Assembly: GCF_036588685.1 (NCBI RefSeq)
Contig: NC_086379.1
Span: forward strand, 31,124,001 to 31,188,000
Length of the DNA: 64,000 nucleotides
Reading direction: 5' to 3'
DNA from: Mytilus trossulus
Taxonomy: Eukaryota
The notes under the pieces were generated by a model, which was not told the origin of the DNA, did not search any database, and saw only the letters and a list, made by a program, of their open reading frames with translations. The translations under genes and the position numbers were made by a program. Of the stretch, positions 1-36,100 are shown piece after piece (within the stretch, counting starts at the first letter, position 1; every line of letters starts with the position of its first letter).

Positions 1-451
1 TTTTCTTTTCTCCACTTAACACTAATGTGTTAATTAATATATTAATTGATTAATTATGATATCACCCAAGCTCCAGAAGCTAGTGGACTGTCGTTTTATT
101 TGGACCGTTCAACGACAGTTAATTAACTACCTGATTTCAATGAAAGACTTCCGTATAGACTTTAATAGAGATAAAGTCAGAAATCCAATATACTTTATCA
201 AACTTAACTTAAGGTGGTTCATGTCACCGTACCTAACACTACAGGGAGATAACTCTGTCAAATCGCTAAACGTTTTAATGGCGTTACATGTATTGTTTAA
301 TGAAAAATTAAGCTTCTCAATGATCAAAATTAGTGTTTGTCAAACTGCCGTTTCAAACCATTTTTTTTCCGAGAAAGTGATCGTTCACTTTATCGATTTT
401 TTTTTTTAATTTTCAAAAGGTCAAAGCAAATTTTTTGTCAACATATTTGGG

Positions 452-843
452 AAACAAGAATGTGTTCCAAGTACACGGATACACCATCCGCACTTTCTTT
501 TTTATGTTCAGTGGACCGTGAAAATGGAATAAAATCTCTAACTTGGCATTTAAATTACAAAGATCTATCATAGGGAACATGTTTACTAAGTTTCATGTTG
601 ATTGGACTTCAACTTCATCAAAAACTTTAACCTGAAGCGGTACAGACGGACGGACGATCGAACAGTACGACGAAGGGACGGACGAACGAACAGAGCGACG
701 AACGGGCAGACGAACGAACAGTACGACGAACGGACGAACTGACGGACGGACGGACGAACAGACGGACAGACATTCAGACAAACTAACAGACCGACGAACG
801 GACGCACAGACCAGAAAACATAATGGCCATAAATGGGGCATAA
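452..843 (+). mobile_element. Non-autonomous interspersed repeat (Helentron/HINE-like) with internal GACG/GACA microsatellite
   Basis: Starts AAACAAGAATGTG, has a (GACG/GAAC)n tract at ~640-810, ends GGGGCATAA. Truncated versions occur at ~3100-3153 and ~4820-4874. Family assignment is by recognition. Confidence 0.6.
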
Positions 844-1524: not shown

Positions 1525-1623
1525 TGAAGGCCGTACTTTAACCTATAATGGTTTAATTTTTAAATTGTTATTTGGATGGAGAGTTGTATCATTGGCACTC
1601 ACACCACATCTTCCTATATCTAT
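1525..1623 (-). mobile_element. Truncated copy of the ~190-bp interspersed repeat (TAGATATAGGAAGATGTGG family), present in one array unit only
   Basis: Near-identical to 55318-55415. Absent at the equivalent site of the next unit (GATAAGCTTGATTAATCC, ~3336-3353). Confidence 0.85.
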
Positions 1624-2038
1624 TGATTAATCCAGAAATATCAATTTGTGACAAGGTGTCCTTTTTTGTGATGGATACGAAAGCAGCAGTTAAAAATCAT
1701 AGTTTGGGGAAATGTTTGAGTAAAGAACGTCCGAAATTGTAATTTTGAAAGCTAGACTTAATCGTTGTTTTTCAAAGAACACAAAGGATAGATTTTAAAG
1801 TAATTTCGTTGTGATGATTTTTACTTTCAATTTATAAGTGAGAAAAAAATTTGCTAAACGAGACCTTCAATAAGAAATATTAAAATCCTGCTTTTATTTT
1901 TCACGCGTTTAAAATAAAAAAAAATATGCATTGCGTAACGTGAACTGCAGAAAAATTAATATGTTTTAAAATCTCCGTTTATTTTTCATCTTAATAAAAA
2001 GAACAAAAGAAAACTTCTTTAAATACCAACAATTCAGA

Positions 2039-2075
2039 CTCTTTTTGATATATATTTGTGGCCCTTAAAAGAGCC
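2039..2075 (-). terminator. Histone-type 3' processing signal, copy 1: stem-loop GGCTCT-TTTA-AGGGCC (2075-2060) plus HDE-like AAAAAGAG (2046-2039)
   Basis: Minus strand reads AAAAG GGCTCTTTTAAGGGCC ACAAA TATATATC AAAAAGAG, starting 35 nt after the stop codon. Confidence 0.85.
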
Positions 2076-2110
2076 CTTTTCACAGTCTGACGACTGGTAA
2101 TGGGAACTCT

Positions 2111-2428
2111 TCAGCGTTCCATGTGTTCTGCGTAACCGTCTTCGAAAGGTTCGTACTCTGCTTCTTCACCAAATAGCTTGTATCTCAGAGCTTCAACTTG
2201 CTTCTGTTTCTCTACTGTGTATTCGTAGTACATGTTTATAACGCCTTCTACTGTAACAATTTTCATGCGTAGTGGATATCGTAAGCACCTAAAGTTGGCA
2301 TTGACGGCATTTTCATATCTGATCTTTAGGTCTTGCAGTTTATCATGGAGTAAAAACATTTGCTGACAGGCTCTCTGAGTTCTACTCTCAGCTTCTTTCA
2401 GTTTGATGCAAAGATGTGGAGAATTCAT
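2111..2428 (-). CDS. Uncharacterised 105-aa predicted helical/coiled-coil protein, array copy 1
   Basis: Intronless ATG-TGA ORF conserved in 3 copies without frameshifts, with many synonymous differences between copies. No histone-fold similarity recognisable. Confidence 0.75.
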   Translation of the reverse strand: MNSPHLCIKLKEAESRTQRACQQMFLLHDKLQDLKIRYENAVNANFRCLRYPLRMKIVTVEGVINMYYEYTVEKQKQVEALRYKLFGEEAEYEPFEDGYAEHMER

Positions 2429-2469
2429 TTTCTTTAGATTTTTTAGACTCAGCTTATCGATTGTTTATT

Positions 2470-2523
2470 GAATGATTTCTGAATACAGAATGATGGATCA
2501 ATCGTTTTACACCTTTTTATTTA
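2470..2523 (-). promoter_or_regulatory. Putative core promoter of the array gene: TAAATAAAA about 30 nt upstream of TCATTC initiator-like sites
   Basis: Minus strand TAAATAAAAAGG starts at 2523; TCATTC at 2493-2488 and 2475-2470. These motifs are conserved in the other two copies. Confidence 0.5.
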
Positions 2524-3153
2524 CATGCATCGTGTGTCAAACGATGTTCATATTGATGTCAAGATGACACTTTAAAATCGTAAAGTCGTGATGCTCAGAT
2601 GACACTTAGTGTGTTTTCTTTTCTCCACTTAACGCTAATGTGTTAATTAATATATTAATTGATTAATCATGATATCACCCAAGCTCTAGAAGCTAGTGGA
2701 CTGTCGTTTTATTTGGACCGTTCAACGACAGATAATTAACTACCGCTGATTTCAATGAAAGACTTCCGTATAGACTTTTATAGCGACAAAGAGCGTATAA
2801 AGTCAGCAAAGCTAATATACGTTATTAAACTTTGACTTGGCTTAACTTAACTTAAGGTGCATGGTTCATGTACCTAACACTACAGGGAGACAACTCTGTA
2901 AAATCAGCTAAACGTTTTACTTACGTTGTATTGTTTAAGGAAAAATTAAGCTTCCCAATGATAAAAATTAGTGCTTGTCAAACTGCCGTTTCCAACCATT
3001 TTTTCCGAGAAAGTGATGGTAAAGTGTATTGAAATTATTTTTCCTTTTCAAAAGGTCAAAGCAAATTTTTTGCAAAAAAATATTTGAAAACCACATTCCC
3101 AAGTACACGAAAGCCCCATCCGCACTATCATTTTTTATGTTCAGTGGACCGTG

Positions 3154-3270
3154 CTTACCTTTACTTAACTTTACTTACCTTTACTTAACTTTACTTAACT
3201 TTACTTAACTTTACTTAACTTAACTTAGCTTTACTTAACTTTACTTAACTTTACTAGTTTACTAACTACT
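3154..3270. repeat. (TTTACTTAAC)n minisatellite within array unit
   Basis: Seen directly. Confidence 0.95.
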
Positions 3271-3758
3271 CAAAGTAAGAGTTTTCGCTCTTAACAAATA
3301 TTTTATTTTTGTGAAAGCATGTTGCTTGATATCGTGATAAGCTTGATTAATCCAGAACTATCCATTTGTGACAGCGTGTCCTTTTTTGTGATGGATACGA
3401 AAGCAGCAGTTATAAGGATATCATAGTTTGGGGAAATATTTGAGTAGAGAACGTCCGAAATTGTAGTTTTGAAAGCTAGACTAAATCGTCGTTTTTAAAA
3501 GAAGAAAGAACACAAAGGATAGATTTTAAAGTAATTTCGTTGTGATGATTTTTACTTTCAGTTTTTACGTGAGAAAAAAATTTGTTAAACGGGACTATAT
3601 CCAAATCCTGCTTTTATTCTTCACGCGTTTAAAATTAAACGATATGATTGCGTAACGTGAACTGCAGAAAAATAAATATGTTTTCAAATCTCCGTTTATT
3701 TTTCATCTTAATAAAAAGAACAAAAGAAAAATTCTTTAAATAAATACAACAATTCATA

Positions 3759-3795
3759 CTCTTTTTGAAATATATTTGTGGCTCTTAAAAGAACC
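3759..3795 (-). terminator. Histone-type 3' processing signal, copy 2: GGTTCT-TTTA-AGAGCC plus AAAAAGAG
   Basis: Stem-loop 3795-3780 followed by ACAAA; HDE-like element 3766-3759. Confidence 0.85.
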
Positions 3796-3857
3796 CTTTT
3801 CACAGTCTGGCGACTGGTGATGGGAACTCTTCAGTGTTCCATGTGCTCTGTGTAATC

Positions 3858-4148
3858 TTATTCATAGAGTTCATATTCTGCTCCTTCACCAAACAGCTTG
3901 TATCTCAGAGCTTCAACTTGCTTCTGTTTCTCTACCGTGTATTCGAAGTATATATTTATAACGCCTTCTACTGTAACAATTTTCATGCGTAGTGGATATC
4001 GTAAGCACCTGGAGTTGGCGTTGACGGCATTTTCATATCTGATCTTTAGGTCTTGAAGTTTATCATGGAGTAACAACATTTGCTGACAGGCTCTCTGAGT
4101 TCTACTCTCAGCCTCTTTCAATTTGATGTAAAGGTGTGAAGAATTCAT
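3858..4148 (-). CDS. Uncharacterised 96-aa protein, array copy 2
   Basis: Paralogue of copy 1. The homologous ATG is at 4148; the ORF-track start at 4175 is a TTG. Confidence 0.7.
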   Translation of the reverse strand: MNSSHLYIKLKEAESRTQRACQQMLLLHDKLQDLKIRYENAVNANSRCLRYPLRMKIVTVEGVINIYFEYTVEKQKQVEALRYKLFGEGAEYELYE

Positions 4149-4874
4149 TTTCTGTAGTTTTTTTAAACTGCGCAAATCGATTGCTTATTGAATGATTTCT
4201 GAATACAGAATGATGGATCAATCGTTTTACACCTTTTTATTTACATGCATCTTGTGTCAAACGATGCTCATATTGATGTCAAGATGACACTTTAAAATCG
4301 TAAAGTCGTGATGCTCAAATGACACTTAGTGTGTTTTCTTTTCTCCACTTAACGCTAATGTGTTAATTAATATATTAATTGATTAATTATGATATCACCC
4401 AAGCTCTAGAAGCTAGTGGACTGTCGTTTTATTTGGACCGTTTAACGACAGATAATTAACTACCGCTGATTTCAATGAAAGACTTCCGTATAGACTTTTA
4501 TAGCGACAAAGAGCGTATAAAGTCAGCAAAGCTAATATACGTTATTAAACTTTGACTTGGCTTAACTTAACTTAAGGTGCATGGTTCATGTACCTAACAC
4601 TACAGGGAGACAACTCTGTAAAATCAGCTAAACGTTTTACTTACGTTGTATTGTTTAAGAAAAAATTAAGCTTCCCAATGATAAAAATTAGTGCTTGTCA
4701 AACTGCCGTTTCCAACCATTTTTTCCGAGAAAGTGATGGTAAAGTGTATTAAATTATTTTTCCTTTTCAAAAGGTCAAAGCAAATTTTTTGCAAAAAAAT
4801 ATTTGAAAACCACATTCCCAAATACACGAAAGCCCCATATCCGCACTATTATTTTTTATGTTCAGTGGACCGTG

Positions 4875-5070
4875 CTTACCTTTACTTAACTTTAATTAAC
4901 TTTACTTAACTTTACTTTACTTAACTTAACTTTACTTAACTTTACTTAACTTTACTTAACTTTACTACTTAACTTTACTTAACTTTACTTAACTTCACTT
5001 AACTTCACTTAACTTCACTTAACTTCACTTAACTTCACTTAACTTTACTTAACTTTACTAATTTACTAAC
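4875..5070. repeat. (TTTACTTAAC/TTCACTTAAC)n minisatellite within array unit
   Basis: Seen directly; longer than in the previous unit. Confidence 0.95.
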
Positions 5071-5590
5071 TCAAAGTAAGAGTTTTCGCTCTTAACAAAT
5101 ATTTTATTTTTGTGAAAGCATCAAAAAAGATCAAATGAAAAATGCACAAAGTAGCGATAAGCTTGATTAATCCAGAACTATCCATTTGTGACAGCGTGTC
5201 CTTTTTGTGATGGATACGAAAGCAGCAGTTATAAGGATATCATAGTTTGGGGAAATATTTGAGTAGAGAACGTCCGAAATTGTAGTTTTGAAAGCTAGAC
5301 TAAATCGTCGTTTTTAAAAGAAGAAAGAACACAAAGGATAGATTTTAAAGTAATTTCGTTGTGATGATTTTTACTTTCAGTTTTTACGTGAGAAAAAAAT
5401 TTGTTAAACGCGACCTTCAATAAGGAATATATCCAAATCCTGCTTTTATTCTTCACGCGTTTAAAATAAAACGATATGATTGCGTAACGTGGACTGCAGA
5501 AAAATAAATATGTTTTCAAATCTCCGTTTATTTTTCATCTTAATAAAAAGAACAAAAGAAAAATTCTTTAAATAAATACAACAATTCATA

Positions 5591-5627
5591 CTCTTTTTGA
5601 AATATATTTGTGGCTCTTAAAAGAGCC
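5591..5627 (-). terminator. Histone-type 3' processing signal, copy 3: GGCTCT-TTTA-AGAGCC plus AAAAAGAG
   Basis: Perfect Watson-Crick stem 5627-5612 followed by ACAAA; HDE-like element 5598-5591. Confidence 0.88.
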
Positions 5628-5689
5628 CTTTTCACAGTCTGGCGACTGGTGATGGGAACTCTTCAGTGTTCCATGTGCTCTGTGTAATC

Positions 5690-5980
5690 TTATTCATAGA
5701 GTTCATATTCTGCTCCTTCACCAAACAGCTTGTATCTCAGAGCTTCAACTTGCTTCTGTTTCTCTACCGTGTATTCGAAGTACATATTTATAACGCCTTC
5801 TACTGTAACAATTTTCATGCGTAGTGGATATCGTAAGCACCTGGAGTTGGCGTTGACGGCATTTTCATATCTGATCTTTAGGTCTTGAAGTTTATCATGG
5901 AGTAACAACATTTGCTGACAGGCTCTCTGAGTTCTACTCTCAGCCTCTTTCAATTTGATGTAAAGATGTGGATAATTCAT
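5690..5980 (-). CDS. Uncharacterised 96-aa protein, array copy 3
   Basis: Paralogue of copies 1 and 2; intact ATG-TAA ORF. Confidence 0.7.
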   Translation of the reverse strand: MNYPHLYIKLKEAESRTQRACQQMLLLHDKLQDLKIRYENAVNANSRCLRYPLRMKIVTVEGVINMYFEYTVEKQKQVEALRYKLFGEGAEYELYE

Positions 5981-6689
5981 TTTCTTTAGATTTTTTAGTC
6001 TTAGCTTATCGATTGTTTATTGAATGATTTCTGAATACAGAATGATGGCTTAATCGTTTTACACCTTCTTTTTATTTACATGCATCGTGTGTCAAACGAT
6101 GCTCATATTGATGTCAAGATGACACTTAAATATCGTAAACTCGTGATGCTCAAATGACACTTAGTGTGTTTTCTGTTCTCCACTTAACACTTATGTGTTA
6201 ATTAATATATTAATTGATTAATCATGATATCACCCAAGCTCCAGAAGCTAGTGGACTATCGTTTTATTTGGACTGTTCAACGACAGTTAATTAACTATCT
6301 GATTTCAATGGAAGACTTGTCTTCCGTATAGAAGAGAGACAAAGAGCGGATAAAAGTCAGGAAAGTCAATATCCTTTACTTTACTTTTCGTAATTTTACT
6401 TCAACTATAGAAAAGGCGTTAGATTAATTTTGATATCACACAACCTCTAGAAACTAGTTGTGTGCCGTTTAAAGACAGTTAATTAGCTTCTTGATTAGAC
6501 TGAAAGAGTTTCATTTATACATTCGTACATTTTAGTATATATTAAAAAAGTTGTGGCAGATGGTCAGCAGGAATACGCTCCACAAGATATGTAATTATTT
6601 ATTTCTTTTCCGTACTTGACCTTTGATTCTTTAATTTTTACTTTTTTGTATATTATCTAGCATATTGACCTTGAAGTTCAAACGTGAAC

Positions 6690-8381
6690 TGTTTTACTTA
6701 GTCATTCGGTGAATATCTCATATTTACAATAGCCTATCCATGCTGACTAGAAGTTTGTTGGTAGTCATTCGATGAATATCTCATATTTACAGTAGCCTAT
6801 CCATGCTGACTAGAAGTTTGTTGGTAGTCATTCGATGAATATCTCATATTTACAGTAGCCTATCCATGCTGACTAGAAGTTTGTTTTACTGAGTCATTCG
6901 ATGAATATCTCATATTTACAATAGCCTGTCCATGCTGACTAGAAGTTTGTTTTACTGAGTCATTCGATGGATATCTCATATTTACAGTAGCCTATCCATG
7001 CTGACTAGAAGTTTGTTTTACTTAGTCATTCGGTGAATATCTCATATTTACAGTAGCCTATCCATGCTGACTAGAAGTTTGTTTTACTTAGTCATTCGAT
7101 GAATATCTCATATTTACAGTAGCCTATCCATGCTGACTAGAAGTTTGTTTTACTTAGTCATTCGATGAATATCTCATATTTACAGTAGCCTATCCATGCT
7201 GACTAGACGTTTGTTTTACTTAGTCATTCGATGAATATCTCATATTTACAGTAGCCTATCCATGCTGACTAGAAGTTTGTTTTACTTAGTCATTCGATGA
7301 ATATCTCATATTTACAGTAGCCTATCCATGCTGACTAGACGTTTGTTTTACTTAGTCATTCGATGAATATCTCATATTTACAGTAGCCTATCCATGCTGA
7401 CTAGAAGTTTGTTGGTAGTCATTCGATGAATATCTCATATTTACAGTAGCCTATCCATGCTGACTAGAAGTTTGTTGGTAGTCATTCGATGAATATCTCA
7501 TATTTACAATAGCCTGTCCATGCTGACTAGAAGTTTGTTTTACTGAGTCATTCGATGGATATCTCATATTTACAGTAGCCTATCCATGCTGACTAGAAGT
7601 TTGTTTTACTTAGTCATTCGGTGAATATCTCATATTTACAGTAGCCTATCCATGCTGACTAGACGTTTGTTTTACTTAGTCATTCGATGAATATCTCATA
7701 TTAACAGTAGCCTATCCATGCTGACTAGAAGTTTGTTTTACTTAGTCATTCGATGAATATCTCATATTTACAGTAGCCTATCCATGCTGACTAGAAGTTT
7801 GTTGGTAGTCATTAGATGAATATCTCATATTTACAGTAGCCTATCCATGCTGACTAGAAGTTTGTTGGTAGTCATTCGATGAATATCTCATATTTACAGT
7901 AGCCTATCCATGCTGACTAGAAGTTTGTTTTACTTAGTCATTCGATGAATATCTCATATTTACAGTAGCCTATCCATGCTGACTAGAAGTTTGTTGGTAG
8001 TCATTCGATGAATATCTCATATTTACAGTAGCCTATCCATGCTGACTAGAAGTTTGTTTTACTGAGTCATTCGATGAATATCTCATATTTACAGTAGCCT
8101 ATCCATGCTGACTAGAAGTTTGTTGGTAGTCATTCGATGAATATCTCATATTTACAGTAGCCTATCCATGCTGACTAGAAGTTTGTTTTACTTAGTCATT
8201 CGATGAATATCTCATATTTACAGTAGCCTATCCATGCTGACTAGAAGTTTGTTGGTAGTCATTAGATGAATATCTCATATTTACAGTAGCCTATCCATGC
8301 TGACTAGAAGTTTGTTGGTAGTCATTCGATGAATATCTCATATTTACAGTAGCCTATCCATGCTGACTAGAAGTTTGTTGG
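6690..8381. repeat. Satellite, ~26 copies of a 63/66-bp monomer
   Basis: TAGTCATTCGATGAATATCTCATATTTACAGTAGCCTATCCATGCTGACTAGAAGTTTGT plus TTTACT (66 bp) or TGG (63 bp); head-to-tail, no spacers. Confidence 0.97.
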
Positions 8382-33100: not shown

Positions 33101-36100
33101 ATCTTATGATCATAAACAAGCTTCTGTCCAAGTTTGGTACAAACCCAGGATAGTTTAAGAAAGTTATTAAAATTCTAAAAACTTTAACCACAGAGTGAAT
33201 GTTATGTTTCCCCGCAGAAAAAAACTAAGTCTATTTATAAGTAAAATACGGAAAAAATGGAATTTTATTTTTACAAAATTTACTTCTGGATACTATCTTA
33301 TGATCATAAACAAGCTTCTGTGCAAGTTTGGTAGAAATCCAGTATAGTTTAAGAAAGTTATTAAAATTTCAAAAACTTTAACCACAGAGTTAATATTTGT
33401 TGACGCCGCCGACGACGACGGAATGTAGGATCGCTTAGTCTCGCTTTTTCGACTAAAGTCGAAGGCTCGACAATAAAACAGTATACTTATATGCAGATTA
33501 AGAATATTTGACCTGTAACCTTCTGATAAAATGGATATAACTAAAGACACACCATCAGGGAGAAAACCTGACTTTTCTCCTTTTTTGAAACCAGTCAGGC
33601 TATATCCAATATCATTGTTACCCAAACTTCAATCATGTCCTTTTATTCATTACATCATGACTTACGTTGTATGTTTTGGCATATTTATTTGGCACTTTTT
33701 CCCAGGTATTGCGTAGCCTGTCCACACAGTTATGACTTAATCCACTTATGATAGCGAACATAGAATTAAAGTTTTTACAATCTTTACAATGACGAGCCAT
33801 TTTTATAAAATGTTTGATGAGTTTCATTCTCCTGACTAGATTCAGTTCTCCACAAACTTCCGATATCACCCAGAACATCTCTCGGTTCACCAACTGAAAT
33901 AAACAATATTGAGGTTATAATTACATTCCACACTCAACTTTTTAAAGATATAATTTACCCGATTTTGTGATAGGCTGATTTTTATTTTGACAATATATGA
34001 ACTTCCCCCACTTTTGAATGTAATCACTTATCTTAGATATTTCAATCATCTATACTTAAAACAACCTAGTATTTTAATAAATAGTAACATATCCAAAATA
34101 AGGATACATAAAAGAAGTGTTTTTTAGTGGAATAAATATTCTATCTTAAAATGTAAATGCTGTTCAAATGAAAGGTTTGTACTCATAATTTTCAATAAAT
34201 TGATAGTGAGATCTAAGGTGAGATACCTTTATTTATACATATTTTGTGTATTTTCCGGTGATCTTTTGTCACAATTCTTCATATCATGTTATTCGCTTGA
34301 GATAGAAACTTATCCTAAGTATTTGAGGCCCATTAACAACAGTGTACTTTTTGTAGAGAGTATATGTTGTCATGCGCCTACATCATTGACATTGCTAACT
34401 TGCTTAGGAAATCAGCTATGAACAGATAATCAATGGTCTTTAAAACTCAAAAGATGTTTCTTTGTTACATCTCATGTCATCACTGCCTCTATTTTGAAAA
34501 ACCACAGATAATCTATAAATCTACAAGAATTGCCTCCCTTTTCATATTTACAAATCCAATTTGGAAGAAACATAAAATTTGACATAATAAAAAAACAAAC
34601 TTTGCTTTGTACTTTGTACCTCTGAAAACTTGTTTAAGCTTGGGGTTCCATATCTTGCATTTAGCTTGAACAGGTCATCGATATACTCTGTCGGTTCTAT
34701 ATCTTTAAATACTTTGAAATCTTCCAAGGTCAGCTGTGATGCCACTTCTGTAGTGTTGAGCTGTAGTAGACTTATCTGTGCCTCTTTGATCAATTCTGAC
34801 CGCAACTCGTCGGGTACCAGTGTCTCCGGGTTCAAATTATTCTTTAAGTAATACCTGAGTACACATGGAACAGTGCGCCTGGGTGAGTGATCAGAAACAA
34901 AAACACAATATTAACCCCTGGAAACTCCATGCCTGGCACACACACACACACGCACAAACAGACAGACATTTAAATGCGTTGTTAAAACATGATGATGTGT
35001 TAGATAAATTGTATATGATATATCAGAACTGTTCTTAGGAAGTATTTCATAATTTAAAAGTTTGAACATTTATTCAATTTGTTTTTATTTCTTTGCTTTT
35101 CATAGTGGGTTTGAAAAAAATTATAATAACAATTTTTGTGAATTCTAAGTTTTATATTTTTTAAATGATTTGGCAGAATTCGTATAACAATAATTATCAG
35201 TTAAAAAGGAAAGAAAATAATCATAAGAGAGAAAACCAACTTTCAAACTTAGTTCTGATATCACTATCATACACAATTCGACAAAGACCTTTGACCGTAG
35301 GTAATATTAAAAAGTTAATTTTATAATATTAATCTGATCTTAAACGTATATTAAGAAAATCAATAGTTGATATGTGTTCAAACTATTATCTGAAAATTTT
35401 TTTACAGACAAAATATTTCATCATTTTGAAAACATCTACCATTATCTTTAATATTGAAAATAGTATAACAACAACTTGAAAGAATAGCATACAAATCTTG
35501 TTACTAAAAATTTTCTTTTAAAGTATTTCTTTCCTGAGAAACTAGTCATTTTAAGTGGCTTTTAATATCAAAAATAAGAACAGACAATCAACTTATAATT
35601 TTTCTCAAAAATTTACAATAGTGTGAAAAAGTTTTAAAATTTCAAGAAAATTCCTACTTTTTTAATTAGTCAATTATAAATTTAAAAATAATTTATCTAT
35701 GATAAAAAAGTTTCGAACTTCAAGTGATGTTTTCCGTTGAGGGAAGTTTAACAATTAAAGGCAGAGATTTAAACTTTAAACCAGGTCAACTATTCTCAAT
35801 TGTCTTCTACCTAATTGTACAAAATATAACGATAAAAAAAATATAAGTTAATAAAGAATACAGTTTATCTATATGGTTAGCAGGCAAAACATCCTAAATC
35901 CATGGTTTGAATGCTGATGTAAACACCATATAACTTATATGTTTGATTCTTATTTGCTTGTCAAAAAAGTTTTTAATAAAATTAAATACCAGCAATGAAA
36001 TTTACTCGGAACAGCTAATCAGGGATAAATCCTTCTGCTTTTAAAAGGTTTCTACCATTGATTCAGGTGAAATTCTTCAATGCTAATCGAAGTGGTTAAA

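Follow-up and report, generated by a model that had tools for sequence, protein, structure and literature searches.

Can a gene that encodes no histone carry the complete 3'-end signal of a histone gene? The question is raised by three open reading frames (ORFs) of about 100 amino acids (aa) at positions 2039..5980 of a 64-kb stretch of Mytilus trossulus DNA (C7:31124001-31188000, within a genome of 1.3 Gb whose contigs are denoted C1, C2 and so on). We refer to the whole stretch as the window and to the gene family of these ORFs as the window family. In replication-dependent histone genes, SLBP binds a stem-loop, the U7 small nuclear ribonucleoprotein (snRNP) reads a histone downstream element (HDE), and the transcript is cleaved to an mRNA without poly(A), whose level goes up in S phase and down again when S phase ends (PMC5100578), with CPSF73 acting in pre-mRNA cleavage (PMC5435866). 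Replication-dependent histone mRNAs are described as the only known cellular mRNAs with such an end (PMC5100578, PMC4604434), and crosslinking and immunoprecipitation (CLIP) of SLBP in HeLa cells gave no true non-histone target (PMC4604434). Our analysis indicates that the window family is probably an old multi-copy host family of molluscs and annelids which encodes a non-histone protein and is processed through SLBP and U7 like a replication-dependent histone gene.

The preliminary description reported three intronless ORFs, each followed on the same strand by a stem-loop, ACAAA and a downstream element, and stems whose two variant positions become G-U wobbles. Both the positions (Table 1) and the stem sequences were confirmed. 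The Rfam Histone3 model (RF00032, cut-off 34 bits), which it proposed as a check, matched all three hairpins, with copy 3 above the cut-off and copies 1 and 2 below it; the copy 3 stem-loop is the only Rfam match at the cut-off anywhere in the window. A second conserved element, AATTGTTG, sits 4 nucleotides (nt) past the HDE octamer AAAAAGAG and had gone unnoticed. A relaxed rule for hairpin plus HDE gave no site on either strand in the other 57,300 nt of the window, so the three hairpins are not a matter of chance. In copies 2 and 3 an earlier stop trims the acidic tail of the protein by 9 residues and leaves 62 nt before the hairpin, and the usual stop still lies 35 nt before it. The AATAAA reported about 75 nt downstream is present in all three window copies and is not constant elsewhere: one main-array copy has ATTAAA, and none was found within the 170 nt examined of the C1 array at 24.1 Mb.

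The same signal ends the histone genes of this genome. In the histone repeat on C6, H2A, H2B, H3 and H4 each carry GGCCCTTTTCAGGGCC 26-33 nt past the stop, followed by an ACCAA tail, TCAAAAAGA and then (A/T)TTGTTG, the counterpart of AATTGTTG. The window genes show the same three parts at the same spacing with near-identical downstream sequence, and the earlier reading of the downstream element as an HDE was borne out by this comparison. The SLBP gene was found on C4. The genome holds at least about 145 histone units, 73-75 on C6 and 71 sites on C9 (the first of the 71 was confirmed as H3), and the window-family arrays lie away from both clusters. A linker-histone H1-type gene with a stem-loop also stands apart from the core histone clusters (L221:845-1468; C6:9.5 Mb).

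The window family has at least 244 copies in the genome, or at least 192 without contig C103, which is possibly a second haplotype. These counts are lower bounds tallied by hand, with the best 150 of 259-275 candidates scored in each of three protein searches. The C7 array continues for about 93 kb past the left edge of the window; retrotransposon-like ORFs (693 and 1289 aa, by eye) are inserted in it at L043:2255-8365 (C7:31.116-31.122 Mb). Copies inside one array are near-identical, paralogues are 40-54% identical to the window protein, and a C10 plus-strand copy is more distant (29-30%). Hairpin and HDE were found 29-244 nt past the stop in 16 of 17 rows representing the subfamilies of this genome, many of them only ~40-55% identical to the window protein; the exception was the single C2 copy. 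Copy by copy, the 3' signal was present in 30/30 examined on C7 and C103 and in 20/21 on C1. Among the three large arrays, blastn found no shared non-coding sequence other than the signal itself (51-57 nt) and one 74-nt match of 73% identity just downstream. Degenerate copies are present at array edges.

Retention of the signal extends beyond this genome. HMMER returned 513 homologue clusters at 50% identity, and the named homologues, recognised by their coding sequence, span bivalves, gastropods and annelids, that is, oysters, snails and tubeworms (Magallana gigas, Crassostrea virginica, Littorina saxatilis, Patella caerulea, Lamellibrachia satsuma and Ridgeia piscesae). K1PRP6, a protein from oyster, shares 69% identity with the paralogue on C4 and 65% with that of the C1 array, and the window copy is not among its five best matches; the subfamilies therefore predate the split from oysters. 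A metagenome scan yielded 65 loci, and 59 were left after 6 with less than 120 nt past the stop were set aside. Hairpin plus HDE occurred in 35/59, the filter found the hairpin alone in 3 more, and L085 had a near-canonical hairpin besides. Controls gave 0/59 on the opposite strand and 0/54 upstream. Together with the own-genome rows, these loci agree with the earlier expectation that homologues keep the hairpin.

To avoid the circularity of a rule set after a first look, the 16-mer nearest to the histone hairpin was also chosen for each gene without any pairing rule. The chosen 16-mer lay within 4 changes of the histone hairpin in 50/76 genes, compared with 0/76 in reversed sequence. Across 27 distinct 16-mers (at most 5 changes), 155/162 stem cells were paired; shuffles averaged 143.3 and none of 2000 reached 155, kinship being uncontrolled in this test. 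Double, compensatory changes were seen at stem pairs 1, 3 and 4 as swaps of G-C with A-T and of C-G with T-A. AAAG starts 13-16 nt past the stem in 47/54.

The encoded protein resembles no histone. AlphaFold2, run with 128 sequences, predicted two long antiparallel helices (4-43 and 47-86) and a disordered tail, with a mean predicted local distance difference test (pLDDT) of 89.2; the model corresponds to neither the three-helix histone fold nor a winged helix. Q23, R37, Y38, A41, Y51, R54, E61, G62 and Y70 are nearly invariant, and five of the nine lie on either side of the turn. A net positive core was found in 125/128 members and a net negative tail in 112/122. Pfam matches of the 128 members and PDB sequence matches include no histone family. 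Comparisons with Pfam, PDB sequences, Foldseek (PDB and viral), VIA and ESM Atlas produced no match specific to the protein, and no Foldseek match reached E <= 0.001 in the PDB or viral sets. Considering the two-helix model and the lack of a specific Pfam, solved-sequence or fold match, the protein is not a histone and belongs to no filed family. This agrees with the preliminary description, which had seen no histone fold and no H1-like composition in it.

The shape itself is shared with the ING N-terminal domain, the ESCRT-III core, SMC coiled coils, prefoldin and LIN9, and the best VIA match to such helical hairpins had Z 11.7 with a root mean square deviation of 1.1 over 87 residues. However, this Z is below about 13, a level that helical models attain through a common arrangement, and identities were 4-19%; no kinship or function follows from these generic matches. 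No longer fused form occurred among the 8000 candidates scored, which is weak evidence. A complex prediction with H3 and H4 of the same genome scored 0.44 against 0.49 for the control and was counted neither for nor against binding. Identity with trochin or lophotrochin is unsupported: four short motifs, used in place of a comparison with those sequences themselves, are absent from four supplementary files of PMC7441323.

Selection on the protein is purifying, as judged from substitutions in close pairs. Of 45 pairs examined individually, 26 close ones had a ratio of non-synonymous to synonymous substitution (dN/dS) of 0.06-0.23; the other 19, with dN >0.44, had 0.5-1.05. The upstream regions also have features in common: TATAAA occurs in 27/45 after de-replication (11.8 expected), and TGACA/TGTCA occurs 123 times in the 45 regions, or 2.7 per 300 nt, compared with 1.05 downstream and 1.07 in the window. 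We take TGACA to be a TALE homeodomain site.

Some members lack the hairpin. A tree of 74 rows and 110 columns, in which many forks are open, groups 13 hairpin-less rows in a single branch (92/87) that lies within the hairpin-bearing ones. Over the whole tree, hairpin state needs 10 changes, a number to which filter misses contribute, as they were counted among the hairpin-less rows. AATAAA occurs within 400 nt at most hairpin-less loci, a motif frequent in DNA so rich in A+T. In L090, an intron of ~450 nt (GT-AG) follows the codon that matches K96 in the protein of L076; the L093 sequence stops at a GT at the same position, and L076 is uninterrupted; all three are without the hairpin, and introns were seen only in hairpin-less members. 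In L082, L088 and L092 (3/65 short metagenome contigs), an H3 gene of the same orientation precedes the family member by 1.1-1.4 kb.

The window family is not the sole owner of the signal in this genome. One stem variant with the HDE occurs at 21 sites (control 0), of which 4 are behind the window family, 5 behind Mutator-like (PF20700) transposase ORFs and others behind BEN-domain or small ORFs, several having no clear ORF; among the sites listed, none is behind a histone ORF. Three transposase loci (Table 1) belong to a 4.5-kb element with 464-bp terminal direct repeats, a PF20700 transposase and a His-Me-type ORF, a layout that corresponds to KolobokP as given in PMC9587614. In these copies the transposase ORF is broken, and its end is separated from the stem-loop and HDE by 42-47 nt; the main text of PMC9587614 contains none of the words 'histone', 'stem-loop' and 'hairpin'. 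Another family of PF20700 transposases, tandemly duplicated over 3.6 kb, has the signal 30 nt past the stop (L199:3213 and 6795; C1:28.14 Mb). On C8 (59.23 Mb), a Tc1-type DDE transposase (379 aa, L203:6246-7385, plus strand) and a BEN-domain ORF facing away from it (428 aa, L203:4802-3516, minus strand) each have stem-loop and HDE 29-30 nt past the stop. Two related small ORFs with the signal on C5 (L209:3450-3148 and L206:5926-6318) each lie about 2 kb from an A32-type ATPase ORF, and L209 also has ORFs resembling protein-primed DNA polymerase (by eye), a Polinton-like context. A GDSL/SGNH-like tandem array with units of ~0.9 kb, many of their ORFs truncated, has stem-loop and HDE in each unit (L211-L217; C1:75.22-75.24 Mb). 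We also noted a 98-aa acidic ORF with the signal (L207:5723-6019; C4:48.89 Mb) and three others that follow short ORF fragments in a 5-kb span (L201-L202; C9:20.82 Mb). In two near-identical contigs of a viral collection, with an RNA-virus-like layout, 12 nt separate the last ORF from a histone-like hairpin, and AAAGAG lies beyond it (L244:2936-2970 and L245:4001-4035); this hairpin may be chance or SLBP mimicry.

These elements bear directly on the origin of the window family. Two origins had been offered, a host gene or cargo of a Polinton-like element, along with the idea that mobile elements mimic histone mRNAs. The idea of mimicry holds for other genes of this genome, among them KolobokP- and Tc1-type transposase ORFs. 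Because the signal lies behind transposases and ATPase-adjacent ORFs, a mobile origin of the window family is plausible: the signal would work, but the genes would be selfish or mobile-element cargo that uses a histone 3' end for expression in S phase or the germ line, spreads in tandem and performs no host service. Such an origin would suit an intronless, amplified family with degenerate copies at array edges that makes up only 4/21 sites of one stem variant, in a genome where the signal also lies behind KolobokP- and Tc1-type transposases, BEN-domain ORFs, the GDSL-like array and the small ORF beside an A32-type ATPase. We nevertheless consider it improbable. The units contain no viral, transposase or Polinton hallmark ORF, and the flanks read hold retroelement or host-like ORFs (by eye); no polymerase, integrase, capsid, ATPase or transposase was seen in 64 metagenome loci (short contigs, by eye). 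The arrays were also considered as KolobokP multimers, which was rejected: neither the window nor any of 10 family loci gave a match to the single terminal repeat tested. In viral contigs 0/25 matches to one short pattern were confirmed, and this search and that for viral folds are both weak for animal elements. Furthermore, subfamilies are common to oyster, some members bear introns, and close pairs show purifying selection. A host gene is thus favoured over Polinton cargo, no hallmark ORF having been found in the flanks read and no match to the one pattern confirmed among the viral contigs.

A different question is whether the hairpin determines the 3' end of most transcripts. It could be SLBP-bound, or used in some stages, while most transcripts are polyadenylated downstream. 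Some mammalian histone genes yield polyadenylated mRNA through signals past the stem-loop (PMC5100578), and an AATAAA in each window copy and RNA contigs that cross the hairpin in two runs point the same way. However, AATAAA is not kept in other arrays or in one main-array copy, the RNA runs may contain DNA, and the HDE and its spacing are conserved far more strictly than hairpin binding alone would require; such dual ends have, in our view, a still smaller chance of being the rule than mobile cargo. It is very improbable that the hairpin is a functionless vestige, acquired when an ancestor inserted beside a histone 3' end and then copied by array homogenisation. The H3-linked metagenome loci would offer a route of capture and the near-identity of copies within an array a means of spread, but it is largely refuted by the compensatory stem changes, by an HDE kept at fixed spacing and by the persistence of the signal in distant animals, as well as by the fact that arrays ~40% identical in protein have lost all other non-coding likeness. 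Least credible of all is a very diverged histone or histone fragment with an ordinary signal: gene layout, copy number and H3 linkage are histone-like, but the confident model has two antiparallel helices with neither histone fold nor winged helix, and histones are absent from the Pfam and PDB sequence matches.

Several observations weigh against histone-type processing of a host family and were set against the evidence above. No U7 gene was found in the genome by the Rfam model or by pattern searches: RF00066 gave 11 sub-threshold matches, none of the 5 inspected being convincing; a pattern of HDE complement and Sm site gave 36 matches versus 29 in the control, and none of 8 chosen ones was U7-like in layout; a stricter pattern gave 1 match versus 5. 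RNA was represented by contigs from 4 of 22 listed runs, with a depth of ~3-12 and covering parts of the unit. One contig spans only the ORF (2127-2422) and one starts at 2055, but where a contig stops does not show where an RNA stops. These low-depth contigs revealed no RNA 3' end, and in two of the four runs a contig crosses the hairpin uninterrupted, which fits DNA carry-over or read-through. The relaxed hairpin rule, which replaced a stricter first regular expression that missed many sites, was set after a first look at the loci; the set includes several duplicated or related loci, and L050 is almost the own array of this genome. Of the three H3-linked copies, two are without a hairpin in the available sequence and the third has only 77 nt past the stop. 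No histone gene was found in 25 flank stretches tested around the own-genome arrays, and, in contrast to histones, the paralogues are only ~40% identical. Across the full set of 236 pairs, dN/dS had a median of 0.52, which we read as saturation in distant pairs. Finally, since mobile elements have the same signal, the signal alone is no proof of host function.

On balance we favour histone-type processing of a host family, whose mRNAs probably follow those of histones in both production and timing. RNA polymerase II would transcribe the gene, SLBP would bind the hairpin, the U7 snRNP would pair with the HDE, and CPSF73 would cut ~5 nt past the stem, with predicted ends at 2055, 3775 and 5607; the cut just after 2055 presumably follows the rule for histone mRNAs. 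The resulting mRNA would have no poly(A) tail, as the preliminary description inferred together with coupling to S phase or the oocyte, and would share the timing of translation and decay with histone mRNAs, either in S phase or in the germ line and fast-cleaving embryos. We consider it likely that processing proceeds in this way at these ends and that the arrays supply bulk protein in fast cycles. Members that lack the hairpin, bear AATAAA and are sometimes spliced would be replication-independent forms. More tentatively, the product may be a bulk nuclear, chromatin-associated protein made alongside histones, in which the conserved Arg/Tyr tip of the hairpin would bind DNA or chromatin and the acidic tail would bind basic proteins. 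A bolder reading, which at present seems to us somewhat unlikely, is that SLBP/U7 processing in molluscs and annelids is not reserved for histones: the window family would be a sixth family, made in bulk and placed on chromatin during S phase or cleavage, and overlooked because its mRNA escapes poly(A) sequencing, and several unrelated DNA transposons would have taken over this 3' end as a means of producing transposase during DNA replication.

The arrangement is conserved and surprising, a known pathway with a new cargo. A non-histone family with the full signal across ~40%-identical paralogues and distant animals would break the histone-only rule. It would represent a class of animal mRNA missed by poly(A)-based transcriptomes and annotation, and would provide a strong functional clue for a new protein family whose relatives in fold are unknown. 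Through hairpins behind their transposases, cut-and-paste elements may have a simple means of restricting transposition to S phase. The literature searched, which excluded most subscription papers, Repbase and bioRxiv supplements, contained no report of the window family or of non-histone genes with a histone-type end, three look-ups of the family by sequence gave no match, and there is none in the available parts of 10.64898/2026.10.14.759114, PMC12153100, PMC13525598 and PMC9587614.

Table 1. Features of the window-family array, further copies of the family and KolobokP-type copies with the signal. Coordinates are window positions unless a contig or locus is named; initiator likeness is our assumption.
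Feature	Position	Strand	Remarks
ORF, copy 1	2428-2111	minus	105 aa, intronless; encodes basic helical hairpin and acidic tail
ORF, copy 2	4148-3858	minus	96 aa; tail shortened by earlier stop
ORF, copy 3	5980-5690	minus	96 aa
Stem-loop, copy 1	2075-2060	minus	histone-type, 35 nt past stop; Rfam Histone3 29.3 bits, E 4.9e-5
Stem-loop, copy 2	3795-3780	minus	whole 3' signal 3795-3747; Rfam Histone3 28.8 bits, E 7.5e-5
Stem-loop, copy 3	5627-5612	minus	whole 3' signal 5627-5579; Rfam Histone3 36.3 bits, E 1.3e-7
ACAAA tail, copy 1	2059-2055	minus	ACAAA directly 3' of all three stem-loops
HDE AAAAAGAG	2046-2039, 3766-3759, 5598-5591	minus	13 nt after stem
Second conserved element AATTGTTG	2034-2027, 3754-3747, 5586-5579	minus
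AATAAA	1983-1978, 3700-3695, 5532-5527	minus	possible fallback poly(A) signal, ~75 nt past stem
TATA-like TAAATAAAAA, copy 1	2523-2514	minus
Initiator-like TCATTC stretch, copy 1	2497-2486	minus
Four TGACA/TGTCA sites upstream of copy 1	2535..2604	minus	motif enriched upstream of window family
Promoter region, copy 2	4206..4324	minus	TGACA sites; TATA-like 4243-4234; initiator-like 4217-4206
Promoter region, copy 3	6038..6159	minus	TGACA sites; TATA-like 6078-6069; initiator-like 6049-6038
Three tandem units	1623..6387	minus	~1.7-1.8 kb each, 90-93% identical; upstream end of C7 array near 6387
Upstream region of fourth copy	1..520	minus	its ORF just left of window, C7:31123507-31123818
C7 array	C7		32 copies
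Unplaced array	C103		52 copies
C1 array	C1:24.04-24.18 Mb		at least 94 copies
C1 array	C1:24.48-24.59 Mb		52 copies
Further copies	C1, C2, C4, C10		14 more
KolobokP-type copy	L196:2062-6586 (C8)
KolobokP-type copy	L197:2073-6593 (C5)
KolobokP-type copy	L198:3072-7567 (C20)

Other features of the window were recorded. A satellite with a 66-nt period (26 copies, 6690-8379) lies immediately upstream of the array, and a 100-nt dispersed repeat at 1524-1623, with several further copies in the window, has very high depth in the RNA runs examined. The spacer of each unit contains a length-variable microsatellite of 5 or 10 nt (3154-3255, 4875-5071, 891-935 and 1418-1453), near which spacer segments are genome-wide repeats. 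Further downstream in the window, an exon encoding a RasGEF domain, at 33633-33878 on the minus strand, belongs to a large spliced host gene.

The window family can also be compared with known gene systems. Like it, the KolobokP-type elements of this genome have the signal, placed behind their transposase, and also form tandem multimers; in contrast to them, its units lack transposase and nuclease ORFs, and no match to the one terminal repeat tested was seen. Replication-independent histone variants contain introns, and in the window family, too, hairpin-less members with AATAAA, some with a GT-AG intron, are nested among hairpin-bearing ones. Histone variants are polyadenylated (PMC5100578), and the likeness is one of gene regulation only, with no kinship of sequence. 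The closest comparison is with replication-dependent histone genes. The protein is not a histone, the paralogues are ~40% identical and the arrays stand off the histone clusters, but both groups consist of short intronless genes, the coding region of hairpin-bearing window-family copies being uninterrupted, and both combine a TATA promoter, a 16-nt stem-loop, a 5-nt A-rich tail and an HDE 13-16 nt downstream in tandem arrays of similar copy number.

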